Source: Phycisphaerae bacterium
Lineage (GTDB): Bacteria; Planctomycetota; Phycisphaerae; UBA1845; Fen-1342
Direction: 5' to 3'
Assembly (NCBI GenBank): GCA_963675745.2
Contig: CAXXWX010000026.1
Coordinates: 224,001-288,000, forward strand
Length of the DNA stretch: 64,000 nt
A model generated the notes under the pieces. It was not told where the DNA came from and did not search any database. It was given only the letters and a program-made list of their open reading frames with translations. Below, one piece after another: positions 28,579 through 33,541 of this stretch. The position numbers were made by a program, and so were the translations under genes. Numbering within the stretch: the stretch's first letter is position 1; each line of letters opens with the position of its first letter.

Positions 28579-29220
28579 TCATTCGGCCGGCGGAGGCTCT
28601 GCCGAACCCTCAGGCGCCCGGGCCGGGACAGGTTCCTTGACTGGCGCCGTCGCGCTGGTCTCAGCTTTGGCGGCGGCGGCCTCACCCGCCTCTTCCGGTT
28701 CCACAGCCACATCGTCGAACGCATTCGGCACCGGCGTCAGAACCGTCACCATGTGGCGGCCGTCCATGCTCGGGTGCCGCTCGATTTTGACCTTCTCGCC
28801 GAACTCGCTGAGGATGCTTCTGAAAATCTCAAATGCAATCTCGCGATGGAAACGCTCGCGGCCGCGAAACTGCATCGTGAACTGCACCTTGTGGCCCTGC
28901 TTGAAGAATTTGATCGCCCGATTGAGCTTGATCTTGCGATCATTGGTATCCGTCTTCGGCCGCAGACGGACCTCCTTGAGCTGCTGCTCGTGGTGCTTCT
29001 TCTGGTTCTTCTTCTGGCGGTACTTCCATTTGCCGTAGTCCATGATACGGCAGACCGGGGGGCGCGCGCTTGGCGCGACCTCAACGAGGTCCATCCCGGC
29101 TTCACGAGCACGCCGCATCGCCTCGAACGTCTCGACGATGCCGATTTGCTCGTCATTGGCACCGATGAGCCGCACTGGTGATAGACGGATCTGCTCGTTG
29201 GTACGGAGATTCTGGTTGAT
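28579..29220 (-). CDS. infC: Translation initiation factor IF-3
   Basis: NEQIR, DLVEVAP, PPVCRIMDYGKWKY, KEVRLRP, FRGRE; follows thrS. Probable ATC start at 29220 (alternative GTG 29229). Confidence 0.96.
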   Translation of the reverse strand: MNQNLRTNEQIRLSPVRLIGANDEQIGIVETFEAMRRAREAGMDLVEVAPSARPPVCRIMDYGKWKYRQKKNQKKHHEQQLKEVRLRPKTDTNDRKIKLNRAIKFFKQGHKVQFTMQFRGRERFHREIAFEIFRSILSEFGEKVKIERHPSMDGRHMVTVLTPVPNAFDDVAVEPEEAGEAAAAKAETSATAPVKEPVPARAPEGSAEPPPAE

Positions 29221-29239: not shown

Positions 29240-31408
29240 TCACGACAGAGTGGCAACCTCCTCGTCGACGGGCGCACTCTCAACACCACGCCGCGAGATC
29301 TCCAACGCACACGCGTGCAAAAAGTCGACCAGTTTCGCCGAACCGAGCTGCTTGCCCTCGCGCGTACGGACGTTTACACAATTTTCGGCGGCTTCCTGTT
29401 CCCCCAGCACGAGAATATAGGGCACCTTTTCCATGGTCGCGCGCCGAATCTTCGCCCCGATGCGATCGCTGCTGTCGTCCAGTTCGACACGCAGACCGGC
29501 CGCCTGACAGGCTGCAAAGACCTTGTTCGCGTATTCCTGCGACTTCTCGCTCACCGAGCAGACAACAACCTGTACCGGGGCCAGCCACATCGGAAACGCG
29601 CCGGCAAAATGCTCTATCAGAATGCCCACGAAACGCTCAAAGCTGCCCAGCGGCGCGCGGTGTACCATGATGGGTCGATGCTCGGCGTTGTCGTCGCCGA
29701 TGTAAGTCAACCCGAAGCGCTCCGGTAGATTGTAGTCGACCTGAATGGTGCCAAGCTGCCACTCGCGCTCCAGACAGTCCTTGACGATGAAATCTATCTT
29801 GGGGCCGTAGAAGGCCGCCTCGCCTTGCTCCTCGGTGTAGTGCAGACCGGCCTGACGCACGATGGCCCGCAGCGCGTCTTCGGCCTTGGCCCAGTTGGCA
29901 TCGCTGCCGATGTACTTCTCGCCGCCCGCCCCGCGCAGCCCGACGCGCACCCGGTAATCATCCAACTGCACCATCTTGAGCACGTGTTGCGCCATCTCGA
30001 CACAGCCGCGGATTTCGTCGGCGAGCTGATCAGCCGTGCAGAAGATGTGAGCGTCGTCCTGCGTAAAGCCGCGCACGCGGGTCAAGCCGTGTACCTCGCC
30101 GGACTGCTCAAAACGGTACACATGGCCGAATTCGGCCAGGCGCACCGGCAGGTCGCGGTAACTCCGCTTTTCGGACGCATAGATGCGTACGTGGTGCGGG
30201 CAGTTCATCGGCCGCAACAGATACCCATCCTCGGCTTGCAGCCAGGTGCGAATCCGTTTGAGCCGCTCCTCAACCGGAGCATTCGCCGGATAGCCGGCAT
30301 CCTTGAGATACTCGTGCTGCTCGGCCAGTTCATGAAACAACGCCAGCTCTTTGTCTGAAGCGGTCTCGCCGCCGGCCTCCAGCGCCACCTCCCACAATTC
30401 GTTGAGCCGCTCGGCGCGCTTCGACTCAAACAACGGCGGATATTGGCTGTCCTTGTAATAGGGGTAGTGGCCGCTGGTGCGATAGAGATCAAGCTTGCCA
30501 ATCTGTGGCGTATAGACCGGCTGGTAGCCGCGGCGCAAGAGCTCGCCGCGGATTTCCTCTTCGAGCGCGTGACGCAAAACGGCGCCACGTGGCTTCCAGA
30601 GCGCCAGCCCCGGGCCGACGGTCGAATCGAGCACAAAGAGGCCCAGTTCCTGGCCAATCTTGCGATGATCGCGCTTCTTCGCCTCTTCGAGTTTCCGCAG
30701 ATACTCGTTGAGCGCCTTCTTGTCGGGCCAGGTGGTGCCGTACACGCGCTGGAGCATCTGCCGGCCGGCGTCGCCGTGCCAATAGGCGCCGGCGACACTC
30801 ATGACCTTGAACGCCCCCACGTGTTTGGTGGTTGGCACATGCGGACCGCGACAGAGATCCTCGAAACACCCGCTGTTCGGTTCGCCGGTCACGTAAAAGC
30901 TGAGCACGTCGCCATCGGCGCGTTCAGCATTGTCGATCTTGTATTCGTTGCCTTCAGCGCGCAGCTTGGGCATGGCCTCATCGCGGCGCATCTCGTAGCG
31001 CGTAAACGGGCGGGCCTCCTTCACGATCTCCTTCATCTTGGCTTCGATGCGTTTGAAGTCGTCCGGCGTCAGGCTGTGTTCGAGATCGATGTCGTAGTAG
31101 AACCCGTTCTCGACCGGCGGGCCGTAGACAAGCTTGGCTTCGGGCCACAGCGCGCAGATGGCCTCGGCCATCACGTGGGCGCAGCTATGCCTGGCGACCT
31201 CGAGCCCTTCCTCGTCGCTGAGCGTCAGAGCGCGAAACTCGACCTCGGGTTCGGTGATCAGGTCGCCCATTTCCACTAGCCGACCGTTGGCCTTGGCCGC
31301 CACGGTCTGGCGCGCCAGCCCCTCGCTGATCGTGCCGACCACGTCGCGCGCGGCCACGCCGTTGTCAAACTTCAGCGACTTACCATCGGGGAGATGAATC
31401 TTTACCAT
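29240..31408 (-). CDS. thrS: Threonine--tRNA ligase
   Basis: TGS domain, RHSCAHVMAEA, DLCRGPH, DHRKIG, RPMNCPHH, RVRGFTQDDAH, FYGPKID, HRAPLGSFERF. Confidence 0.98.
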   Translation of the reverse strand: MVKIHLPDGKSLKFDNGVAARDVVGTISEGLARQTVAAKANGRLVEMGDLITEPEVEFRALTLSDEEGLEVARHSCAHVMAEAICALWPEAKLVYGPPVENGFYYDIDLEHSLTPDDFKRIEAKMKEIVKEARPFTRYEMRRDEAMPKLRAEGNEYKIDNAERADGDVLSFYVTGEPNSGCFEDLCRGPHVPTTKHVGAFKVMSVAGAYWHGDAGRQMLQRVYGTTWPDKKALNEYLRKLEEAKKRDHRKIGQELGLFVLDSTVGPGLALWKPRGAVLRHALEEEIRGELLRRGYQPVYTPQIGKLDLYRTSGHYPYYKDSQYPPLFESKRAERLNELWEVALEAGGETASDKELALFHELAEQHEYLKDAGYPANAPVEERLKRIRTWLQAEDGYLLRPMNCPHHVRIYASEKRSYRDLPVRLAEFGHVYRFEQSGEVHGLTRVRGFTQDDAHIFCTADQLADEIRGCVEMAQHVLKMVQLDDYRVRVGLRGAGGEKYIGSDANWAKAEDALRAIVRQAGLHYTEEQGEAAFYGPKIDFIVKDCLEREWQLGTIQVDYNLPERFGLTYIGDDNAEHRPIMVHRAPLGSFERFVGILIEHFAGAFPMWLAPVQVVVCSVSEKSQEYANKVFAACQAAGLRVELDDSSDRIGAKIRRATMEKVPYILVLGEQEAAENCVNVRTREGKQLGSAKLVDFLHACALEISRRGVESAPVDEEVATLS

Positions 31409-31549
31409 GCTTGGCTGTTCCTCATGAGAGCAACGAGGCCCCAGCCGCCGGCACTTGATTCGATGTGATGGTCGGTGGAAACGCGAAACACGCTGGAACC
31501 TCGATGATCAACTGCATAGACACACTGCCGCCCGTGGCGGGCCTCCGAC

Positions 31550-31582
31550 TCATGCTGGTGTTGTCTGTGTCAGTCGCATCAT
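31550..31582 (-). CDS. Putative Thr-rich leader peptide (MMRLTQTTPA) of thrS
   Basis: GAAGGAA SD, then ATG ATG CGA CTG ACA CAG ACA ACA CCA GCA TGA, located between a predicted promoter and thrS. Confidence 0.65.
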   Translation of the reverse strand: MMRLTQTTPA

Positions 31583-31631
31583 CTGATTCCTTCTGCTGCC
31601 GAGCGTCCCGGACAGGACGCGCTCACCGTTA

Positions 31632-31660
31632 ATAATGAGCCCATTTCGGGGGTAAGTCAA
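31632..31660 (-). promoter_or_regulatory. Putative sigma70-type promoter of the thrS leader
   Basis: Minus strand reads TTGACT (31660-31655), 17-nt spacer, CATTAT (31637-31632). Confidence 0.6.
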
Positions 31661-31909: not shown

Positions 31910-32512
31910 TCAGACGCCGCTGATGGTATCTCCCTGCTGGTGCATGGACTGATGCGAATACGCCGTTGCCACGAGGGCCGCCAGCAACGCGGGCACAAGC
32001 AATGACCAGTCCGAGGCCCAACTGACGAACGTGTACCCCAGGCTGGGCGCAAAAGTGGCCGTGAATCCGGCGACGCCAAGCACCATCAAAACCGCGCCCT
32101 GCAACGTGGTAAGCACCAGCGTCATGGAGCGTTGGCATACCCAGGCGAACAACAGGCCCAGGCCGCCACACAATACCGCGGCACCAAACTGCCAGACGGC
32201 GTCGAGCCTGGCCTGATCGGCAAGGTATATCCCCAAAACACCCCAGACCGCCGCGGACGCCAGGGCCATCGAGGCCCGTTGGAAACGGAAGGCGGTTATC
32301 CCGCCGGCCAGCGACGCCAAGGCCGCGAGAAGTTCGGGCGACATGTCGGCGTTGATCGCAATCACCGCGCCGATCAGCCAACCGACGCCGGCGCACGTGA
32401 GGGCCAGCAGGGGCTTAAAGAACCGAAAACCATAAAACGCGTACACCATTCCGATAGCGAGGGTCAGGAATCCGACCGTACCGGATTGACTGGTGATCCA
32501 GTCCAGAAGCAT
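31910..32512 (-). CDS. DUF4203/TMEM198-like membrane protein
   Basis: GMVYAFYGFRFFKPLLAL..G.GWLIG motif; about 7 TM helices; LTTLQGAVL. ATG start at 32512. Confidence 0.78.
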   Translation of the reverse strand: MLLDWITSQSGTVGFLTLAIGMVYAFYGFRFFKPLLALTCAGVGWLIGAVIAINADMSPELLAALASLAGGITAFRFQRASMALASAAVWGVLGIYLADQARLDAVWQFGAAVLCGGLGLLFAWVCQRSMTLVLTTLQGAVLMVLGVAGFTATFAPSLGYTFVSWASDWSLLVPALLAALVATAYSHQSMHQQGDTISGV

Positions 32513-32713
32513 ATCTTGATGACCGTTCAACAAAGAACTCCGTTGGCGAGGCGCTGTTCTGGCCACTCTCATAATGGCAATGATGCAGGCGCATCAGCAA
32601 CCTGAGGCGTGGAGAAATCGCGCGTGGGCCGTGCGTATTTGAAGAACGCCTGATAACAAACGCGTGGACGATGGGTAATCGCGATAGGGTCTCAAGCGCC
32701 GTGCGCCCGATCT

Positions 32714-33541
32714 TCAGCCGGCGACGGGCTTGGCCGCGGCCCCGGCGGGCGCGTCAGACGAATCCGCAGCGCTCGTTTTGCGCGATGTGCCGCGGTCACG
32801 GCGGCGCTGGTCAAGCAGATTGTACAGGACTGAAAACAGCCAGATGCCTCCGGTGACACCCCACGTCCACGAGCCAAGCTGAGCGGCTTGCTCGTGCAGG
32901 CCCAGCAGGTGCAGCAGCCCGTAAACGCCCGCAAGAAGTGTCAGTGTGCCAAGGGTGGCGGCCGCGACCGCCCGCGCGATCGCCGGCAACATCAGGCCAA
33001 ACACGAGCCCAGCCAGCCCGGTCGAGATCGCGATCGCCAACAGGCTCATCTCGAGGTGGGGAACATGCGCTTGAAGATAGTCCCACTCAACACGCTGCAT
33101 CCACCCGCCAAACACGGCCGGCGATTCTCCAGCGTCAAGCAGAGTTACGTCGACGCCCTCGCCGGCGCGGTAGCGCCATATGGCTGGATCGAGAACCTTG
33201 GCGTAGTAGAGGCCCAGCGAACCACAGGTTGCGAACAGGGCAAACAGCGCCGCCAGCCAGATACGTGCCAGAAAAACGCCCAGTAGTAACAGGGCGACTG
33301 AGGCAATCAGTGTTGTCGGCAAGTGAGGCAAGCCGGCTTGTCGCGCGACGAGCGCCCCCGCCCCGGCCCCGACCCCGGCGAAAACTATCGAGATCAGGAA
33401 CGTCGTCAGCCGCGCACCCTTCAGCAGCAAGACCGCCGCCGCCAGCAACACGCCGATCGTGACGACCCAAGGTGTCCACTCGTAGCCGCCGGCCAGATGT
33501 TGGCGGGTTGTCTCGATCAGATTGTCGGCCAACTCATACAT
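32714..33541 (-). CDS. Polytopic membrane protein, possible divergent DUF4203 paralog with a soluble insertion
   Basis: LLLKGARLTTFLISIVFAGVG and AAATLGTLTLLAG echo the neighbouring gene; multiple TM helices. Confidence 0.65.
   Translation of the reverse strand: MYELADNLIETTRQHLAGGYEWTPWVVTIGVLLAAAVLLLKGARLTTFLISIVFAGVGAGAGALVARQAGLPHLPTTLIASVALLLLGVFLARIWLAALFALFATCGSLGLYYAKVLDPAIWRYRAGEGVDVTLLDAGESPAVFGGWMQRVEWDYLQAHVPHLEMSLLAIAISTGLAGLVFGLMLPAIARAVAAATLGTLTLLAGVYGLLHLLGLHEQAAQLGSWTWGVTGGIWLFSVLYNLLDQRRRDRGTSRKTSAADSSDAPAGAAAKPVAG

Follow-up and report, generated by a model that had tools for sequence, protein, structure and literature searches.

How is the gene for threonyl-tRNA synthetase controlled at a planctomycete locus in which a short reading frame rich in threonine codons precedes it? 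The question arises from the minus strand of one window, the whole 64,000-nucleotide stretch of Phycisphaerae DNA that was analysed. The original prediction was a leader that senses Thr-tRNA by ribosome stalling and thereby attenuates thrS. The sensing and an output at the level of translation fit the conservation and folding described below; the two further ORFs that lie between sensor and gene were not part of it. Our best reading of the sequences is a Thr-tRNA stalling sensor with a termination-reinitiation relay, its output having apparently shifted to translation from termination. All coordinates are window positions on the minus strand. Negative positions are counted back from the A of the thrS ATG (31408), and for stops, +1 and +4 say how far past that A the first base lies.

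The thrS gene (29240..31408) encodes a threonine-tRNA ligase of 722 residues (TIGR00418, 669.6 bits; cut-off 383.65). Its own Shine-Dalgarno (SD) sequence, AGGA at 31422-31419 (-14 to -11), has the spacing usual for the genome. The next gene is infC, encoding IF3 (28579..29220; TIGR00168, 168.6 bits), which likely starts with ATC behind AAGGAAGGTGA. In the window and in L001-L030 the infC start (29240-29218 region in the window) has a strong SD and is apparently ATC, with ATT in some relatives and ATG in a few; a non-standard infC start is expected from the self-control of IF3. The sigma-70-type promoter proposed for thrS, TTGACT-N17-CATTAT (31632..31660), is in its predicted place, with TTGACT at 31660-31655, a 17-nt spacer and CATTAT at 31637-31632, and transcription probably starts near 31626. 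Promoter-like sites number 2 in 901 nt versus 0.1 in shuffles, and TTGAC occurs at -300 to -180 in 66/69 family leaders, together with a second box resembling TA.A.T. Short tandem repeats of the CTGACCT and TTTTCAGTG types lie upstream of the promoter (31782-31755 and 31862-31835). Two tandem predicted membrane proteins without an NCBIfam match are encoded at 31910-33541, and the nearer of them is found upstream of thrS in many family loci too. The synthetase carries an insertion of ~65 residues in its catalytic region (residues ~327-392; window ~30230-30430), common to the family and some of the order, and distant relatives match in two pieces around it. One relative (L017, G017:C12) has a single in-frame TAG inside its thrS match.

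The comparison rests on leaders collected from the window's family and beyond. The synthetase was found in 71 of the 72 family genomes; three genomes gave no usable leader (G001, with its 5' end cut; G063, with 24 nt upstream; G077, with no match). The family sample is 69 distinct leaders from 40 genera, in which kin are non-independent. Two contig runs that may be the source of this DNA carry the window's leader with no differences. Outside the family, 43 Phycisphaerae leaders were collected first and 104 later, plus 26 thrS leaders from other classes. The first upstream ORF, uORF1, was searched for among ATG, GTG and TTG ORFs of 3-20 codons with a stop at -170 to -110, a range set after the first 24 leaders had been seen. 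The null for Thr counts was 200 dinucleotide shuffles. In a quick ThrRS tree, 21 of whose 75 rows were less than half filled, the family forms one clade and the relay types described below are scattered.

In the window, uORF1 (31550..31582) encodes MMRLTQTTPA with three ACA codons, behind the SD-like GAAGGAA (31587..31593; the genome's 16S tail is CACCTCCTTTCT); both are as the original prediction placed them. It also expected ACA to be uncommon, and across 1744 long genomic ORFs ACA accounts for 11% of the Thr codons, against 39% for ACC. Thr-rich uORFs were to be sought upstream of thrS in relatives, and they are there. Thr fills 92 of the last-four-codon places in the 69 leaders versus 11.6 +/- 3.6 in shuffles (z 22); the next-best residues, Glu, Val, Gly and Arg, reach z 3.6-5.3. 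At least one Thr in the last four codons is found in 50/69 leaders (10.0 expected, shuffle maximum 18) and at least two in 31/69 (0.9 expected, shuffle maximum 4). Because a Thr-ending uORF is conserved in the family leaders, uORF1 goes beyond chance. The 92 codons are 64 ACA, 22 ACG, 4 ACC and 2 ACT, so that ACA and ACG make up 86 of them. Given this bias and the tRNA-Thr genes of the genome (UGU, GGU and CGU), the sensed species is likely the UGU tRNA, and the CGU tRNA with it. Besides the 72-nt tRNA-Thr(CGU) of the genome (G000), there are two 84-nt calls, perhaps false calls or unusual tRNAs. Taken together, uORF1 is very probably a Thr-tRNA sensor.

The sensor is patchy within the family and the class. 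By the search rule, 19/69 family leaders have no Thr-ending uORF, and some of these still have the overlap chain described below. In three leaders (L112, L113 and L124) the chain is intact and uORF1 has no Thr codon (MHEVAQ*, MARRIES*), the sensor being lost or changed. In five others (L136, L137, L138, L147 and L154) the promoter lies nearer thrS and there is no Thr uORF; the last ORF of the chain is kept in all, and an ORF resembling the middle one in 4/5. Among the 43 leaders from other Phycisphaerae families Thr is enriched too (54 versus 19.0); uORFs of the MTRTTA and MxxTTTTTTC types occur in other families. A Thr uORF is found in all five leaders of family f12, in f2, f6, f7 and f26 and in one leader of f16; it was not found in the examined leaders of f13 (4), f17 (3) and f22 (3). 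Outside the class, 4/26 thrS leaders have a weak two-Thr ORF and none has the pattern. A crude scan of 3544 ORFs for other leader peptides in the genome, which required an SD and ATG, dropped runs of R, A, G, P and S and was non-exhaustive, found only the thrS uORF convincing.

Two ORFs that were overlooked when the sequence was first read join uORF1 to the thrS start. ORF M (31422..31553; 43 codons, with a second in-frame ATG at 31517) opens on the uORF1 stop: uORF1 ends GCA TGA, giving an ATGA overlap with the M ATG at 31553. M in turn ends TCA TGA over the ATG of uORF2 (31425), again an ATGA overlap. uORF2 (31402..31425; MRNSQAW*) begins at -17 and is not preceded by its own SD; it contains the thrS SD and stops at +4, across the thrS start. 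At every junction the reading frame moves back by one, and after three junctions it is that of thrS again. In the family, leaders of type A have M starting on the uORF1 stop as in the window, and in type B leaders M mostly starts at -55, -58, -61 or -64.

Several features of the family suggest selection on this chain. The ATG before thrS is at -17 in 59/69 leaders, at -20 in one and at -26 in two, always in the same frame, and all 60 ATGs at -17 or -20 run to a stop at -2 (3), +1 (6) or +4 (51). Such an ATG at -17 is rare elsewhere (5/419 clear-start genes of the genome; 1/95 non-family thrS), while a stop at -2, +1 or +4 is by itself common (163/419 genes, 42/95 non-family thrS and 66/69 family leaders). 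The second codon of thrS is constrained accordingly: where it encodes Val it is GTG or GTA in 41/46 leaders, versus 46% for Val before A genome-wide, and where it encodes Leu it is CTG or TTG in 14/14. In each of the five leaders with GTC or GTT there, a different stop is present, at -2, -5 or -6. An ATG-started ORF ends within -6 to +7 in 67/69 family leaders versus 16.6 in shuffles and 22/95 in non-family thrS, and in the remaining two a GTG-started ORF does so. An ATG-started M ends at the ATGA in 45 of the 58 leaders that have it, versus 11.0 expected; in L137 and L138 the ATGA is lost and M stops at -23 instead.

The first junction behaves similarly. Thr uORFs end in ATGA or GTGA in 30/50 leaders, and the frame so opened is stop-free in 29 of these 30 (20 genera), versus 18 and 16 for the other frames and 14.5 in shuffles. 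There is one stop in the opened frame, versus 17 and 22 in the other two, and the sole closed case is L156. A path to the thrS start exists in 28/29 leaders, versus 15.5 in frame-randomised shuffles with a slightly different choice of uORF; non-family leaders mostly have no such path (4/14, null 2.7). Gap runs inside the relay ORFs come in multiples of three (6/6 and 2/2) versus 7/31 upstream of M. Within the window's genus three leaders could be used (the window, L004 and L007); each takes a different frame, and every one reaches the thrS start. Changes in M fall evenly on the three codon positions (48, 61 and 55; 22 synonymous and 43 nonsynonymous, in 13 close pairs), so the passage of ribosomes rather than the peptide seems to be selected, and the M peptide appears to be free of amino-acid selection. 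The conserved stop/start overlaps (-4, -1 or a few nt) are of the kind that marks termination-reinitiation coupling of the uPPE2 type. Two properties of these leaders bear on the counts: where GC is high, a frame frequently stays open by chance alone (in 29, 55 and 52 of 69 leaders, frame by frame), and a conserved CAUG...CAUG hairpin, which is not predicted in the window, could alone account for part of the -17 spacing. On balance, we think it probable that the relay ORFs are translated and coupled. Frameshifting was rejected in two forms. A shift from uORF1 into the uORF2 frame lacks a constant frame relation (uORF1 stop frames 27/11/12), and for a programmed shift into thrS the +1 frame is closed in 10/27 leaders.

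Folding predictions suggest how a ribosome on uORF1 could act at a distance. The uORF had been predicted to be complementary to a downstream segment, and in the fold ensemble it indeed pairs with 31525-31495 (p 0.76-1.0). The resulting helix H1 (31590-31558 with 31525-31495; 31495..31590) is predicted to conceal the SD, the start codon and the Thr codons of uORF1 as well as M's second in-frame ATG. Double changes are seen at 4/8 of its pairs in 18 type A family leaders, counted, as for all structures here, on the alignment from which the structure was read. With uORF1 free, a composite 3' helix (31382..31472; p 0.73-0.85) is predicted to mask the uORF2 start, the thrS SD and the thrS AUG. With a ribosome sitting on the Thr codons, and only then, helix H2 is predicted, pairing GAGGCCC (31545-31539) with GGGCCUC (31441-31435) (31435..31545; p 0.82-0.97); a 5' hairpin (31603..31620; p 0.90-0.97), similar by eye in some relatives, is also predicted to form when uORF1 is occupied. 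Folding the window leader with the uORF occupied and free, as had been proposed, predicts a two-state switch: a footprint on any of the three ACA codons turns H1 into H2 and breaks the composite helix, and one on the uORF1 stop returns the fold to the H1 state. By prediction, the leader thus has mutually exclusive helices that overlap the uORF.

The partners of the switch differ from those first proposed. A helix between 31503-31492 and 31445-31434 forms only if folding begins behind the uORF; when the whole leader is folded, both dominant states lack it. Among the 43 relatives that have both a Thr uORF and the -17 ATG, it pairs no better within a leader than across species (own -18.7 versus cross -19.4 kcal/mol). 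H2 gives the strongest own-versus-cross-species signal in these leaders (own -18.7, cross-species -15.0, shuffled -14.5 kcal/mol), and in these models the conserved switch partner is 31545-31539:31441-31435. The suggested pairing of CCUCGU with AUGAGG at the thrS SD has p 0.83 in the unoccupied window leader, but that hairpin is no family feature. No signal came from a pairing between the CAUG at -18 and the uORF1 stop (own -6.3 versus cross -5.9), which was rejected. RNAalifold gave no single consensus fold for the whole family on the mixed 43-row alignment.

The predicted effect on the thrS start depends on the type of leader. The start is harder to open than those of other SD genes (10.8 versus 8.5 kcal/mol; 59 versus 153 sequences), closed in most relatives by a CAUG-AGG/CC-CAUG hairpin and in the window by the longer composite helix. 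In the 26 leaders with an internal M start, a modelled stall makes the thrS start easier to open in 18 and harder in 5 (median -1.8 kcal/mol), and a modelled ribosome at the uORF1 stop makes it easier in 13 and harder in 8 (median -0.5 kcal/mol). The same stall closes the M start, harder in 14 and easier in 7 of the 26. The 17 leaders without an M start at -66 to -50, the window among them, show no trend (6 easier, 5 harder), and an earlier stall model over all 43 leaders gave 17 easier and 9 harder. For the window itself the stall lowers the modelled opening cost from 12.8 to 10.9 kcal/mol, while the unpaired probability of the SD barely shifts (0.25 to 0.26).

Other Phycisphaerae families have another form of this leader. 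In them a single long helix takes its 5' arm from the start and first codons of the uORF, and a U-tract lies behind its 3' arm. A U-tract accompanies 26 of the 47 leaders with a two-Thr uORF outside the family (104 examined) versus 4/50 inside it, and the window has no terminator-like site, in line with the U-tailed terminator having been reported missing there. In 21 non-family leaders, those that a seed motif retained out of 26 selected visually, 11/13 pairs of the terminator helix have double changes and 90.7% of cells pair. Its covariation score was reached by 0/500 shuffles, the structure being drawn from the same alignment. A ribosome paused at the Thr codons would directly block this terminator. 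H1 is its counterpart in the window's family, with the same layout and no U-run. The infC context was rejected as the cause of terminator loss, since infC follows thrS inside and outside the family. This compact, covarying attenuator, with the Thr uORF as the 5' arm of a U-tailed helix, is found in several families (L072, a subset of L077-L109, L157, L160, L163, L166, L221-L225 and L234); the members tested gave no Rfam match.

Combining conservation and models, we put at about 0.55 the probability that the thrS leader is a conserved Thr uORF chained to thrS that acts on translation as a Thr-tRNA attenuator. The finer logic, in which thrS has two routes of entry and is induced on Thr-tRNA shortage, has an even or marginally better chance of being correct. 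When Thr-tRNA is ample, the ribosome would leave uORF1 quickly, H1 would form and the thrS SD and AUG would remain paired. Synthetase would then be made only by ribosomes passed on through M and uORF2, at a basal level; these relay ribosomes would melt the masking helix, terminate at the thrS start, where the SD lies ready, and reinitiate. When Thr-tRNA(UGU/CGU) is scarce, the ribosome would linger on the ACA or ACG codons and block H1. H2 could then form and strip the masking helix, direct initiation would open and thrS translation would rise. The two routes, a basal relay and direct entry on stalling, are proposed since the modelled stall eases the thrS start in most type B leaders, shows no trend in the others and tends to close the M start. 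The relay could also respond to the level of IF3, which acts in reinitiation as well. The direction of regulation is the weakest step. Should the relay be the sole route, the opposite sign is possible, because a stall hardens the M start and blocks the overlap start. The fuller description, in which up to three termination-reinitiation steps across a 145-nt leader evolved from the one-helix terminator attenuator of sister families, is more tentative, at somewhat less than even odds.

The same data can be read as a relay through which all thrS translation passes, with one ribosome conveying the signal all the way to the gene. A pause at the Thr codons would then either keep the sole entrance open (uORF1, hidden by H1) or cut the flow, and the sign could reverse, with less synthetase, and perhaps less IF3, on shortage. 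Type A leaders, which have no fold switch at the thrS start, leave the relay as the only visible link, and in them H1 hides the overlap GTG. M and uORF2 persist where the Thr uORF is missing, as a positive landing pad would, and stall modelling shuts the M start. Strict dependence on a single relay ORF has a tested precedent in uPPE2, in the available part of that report (PMC11260477). However, thrS retains its own SD at the genome-usual spacing, 18/26 type B leaders open on a modelled stall, and less synthetase on shortage would be the opposite of other known thrS systems. We consider this reading unlikely.

Less probable still is Rho-dependent attenuation, in which the C-rich 3' half of the leader would load Rho, the relay ORFs or H2 would shield it, and control would be on transcription. 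The genome has rho (671 bits, over the cut-off, on C15), and the presence of rho together with the C-rich 3' half makes a transcription-level share possible within the attenuator that we favour. In the region from -75 to -20, C reaches 45% against 26% for G in 14 type A leaders, and 35-37% in the others, and the ancestral-looking form is itself a terminator. Yet Rho leaves unexplained the clustering of stops at -6 to +7 of the thrS ATG and the choice of codons 2 and 3. The predicted number of unpaired bases in -75 to -20 hardly moves on a stall (21.1 to 19.9), and shielding by the relay would vanish exactly when uORF1 stalls. A second rho-like gene is also present (G000:C26:802471-803553, L168), with 425 bits and under the family cut-off.

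Traffic through M and uORF2 might instead mainly block the thrS SD, so that a stall on uORF1 halts the traffic and frees the start; ATF4-like logic is the model for such an arrangement. Initiation at -17 necessarily places a ribosome over the SD (-14 to -11), and the predicted shutting of M on a stall matches the expected sign. Close upstream sites do repress by occlusion in S. meliloti, as the available part of one report describes (PMC13285730). We nevertheless judge occlusion very improbable: selection for a stop exactly at the thrS start suits a handing-on of ribosomes rather than a block, uORF2 lacks its own SD, and the chain is retained where the Thr uORF is missing. Finally, the idea that CAUG palindromes and open frames in GC-rich sequence gave rise to the relay ORFs as by-products, with a plain leader-peptide switch, an E. 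coli-type ThrRS operator or a T-box in control, gains something from the nearly invariant CAUG:CAUG pairing and the unconserved relay peptides, but is hardly credible against the frame-keeping shifts (-20 and -26; M starts at -55, -58, -61 and -64), the gaps in threes, the compensating stops, the C-to-G changes at -1 that break the hairpin pair (three of them creating TGATG), the lack of an Rfam T-box and xGU loops near expectation.

If the attenuator with a relay is correct, one bacterial class has retained a sensor and changed what it drives, from intrinsic termination to translation, with both forms extant. Leader-peptide control of thrS would by this prediction extend to Planctomycetota. 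The family also provides a natural set of about 70 variants in which stop/start junctions follow one another (ATGA, GTGA, TGATG, ATGnTGA and gaps of 2-3 nt), apparently selected for connection and not for the peptide, which makes the mode and efficiency of bacterial reinitiation directly testable. It is also a caution that such leaders can be fully translated though unannotated.

Among known systems, a 2010 comparative survey of attenuators of aminoacyl-tRNA synthetase genes reportedly predicted thrS among them. The Rfam T-box and Thr_leader models have no match in the window, where only mir-718 appeared (E 0.53), or in 12 related loci; the original prediction had named a T-box match as evidence against it. 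A T-box was rejected on this ground and on its GGTGG.ACC motif, present in 1/69 leaders. An operator of the E. coli ThrRS type was rejected because anticodon-like xGU loops number 28/66 versus 23.3 expected, a crude count on minimum-energy folds. A classical terminator-type transcription attenuator of the thrL or trpL kind was rejected on the 0 terminator sites of the window and the U-tract frequency in the family. A search of open-access literature gave no report of a planctomycete thrS attenuator and no amino-acid leader chained to its gene by overlapping ORFs; the leader-gene tables of PMC4833913, which include Planctomycetes, may list such ORFs. The available part of PMC2965389 mentions neither thrS nor Planctomycetes, and those of PMC10274678, PMC8092293 and PMC6614838 hold nothing specific.

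A close relative is a leader peptide with Thr codons ahead of thrS in S. lividans (SLIV_19412), for which regulation was inferred (PMC8079986). A thrS leader peptide is therefore not new in itself, although we found no report of one from Planctomycetota. Both are short Thr-codon ORFs before thrS without a U-tract; as far as the available text describes it, the S. lividans thrL is leaderless and has 18 codons, with its Thr codons mid-peptide and no mention of relay ORFs (PMC8079986). With E. coli thrL, trpL and hisL the leader shares cognate codons in the leader ORF, alternative helices and biased codon choice, the E. coli thr leader having eight ACC codons in the part of the source available (PMC1183508). 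The window's family uses ACA and ACG in place of ACC and mostly lacks an intrinsic terminator. In the other Phycisphaerae the leader ORF is itself the terminator 5' arm, whereas classical attenuators, of which pheM-pheST is another, use the 1:2/2:3/3:4 set. In translational attenuators such as ermC, cat and secM-secA, as predicted here, a stall exposes a masked ribosome-binding site; in the window some 130 nt separate that site from the stall, and coupled ORFs lead to it as well. Polycysteine uORFs reportedly belong to the translational attenuators too.

For the relay, a close parallel is uPPE2 in the ppe2 B12 riboswitch of M. tuberculosis, an AUGA-joined uORF that hands ribosomes on by termination-reinitiation; from the part of the report available, it is a single relay ORF behind a metabolite aptamer (PMC11260477). 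The window differs in having up to three junctions behind a codon-stalling sensor and a thrS that keeps its SD. Reinitiation from leader genes is described for bacteria including Planctomycetes in the available part of PMC4833913. MIRU ORFs and other ribosome-delivering uORFs are likewise short, peptide-indifferent and joined by -4 overlaps, but the available parts of their descriptions tie them to no amino-acid sensor and no family-wide conserved chain (PMC12548453, PMC4833913, PMC13285730). With its conserved short uORF rich in codons for the amino acid that the gene serves, the feature appears to work like a leader-peptide attenuator, and on sequence and models it lies outside the terminator-type thrL, T-box and ThrRS-operator families. 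Its known kind is the Thr leader peptide before thrS, and its new part is the relay chain.
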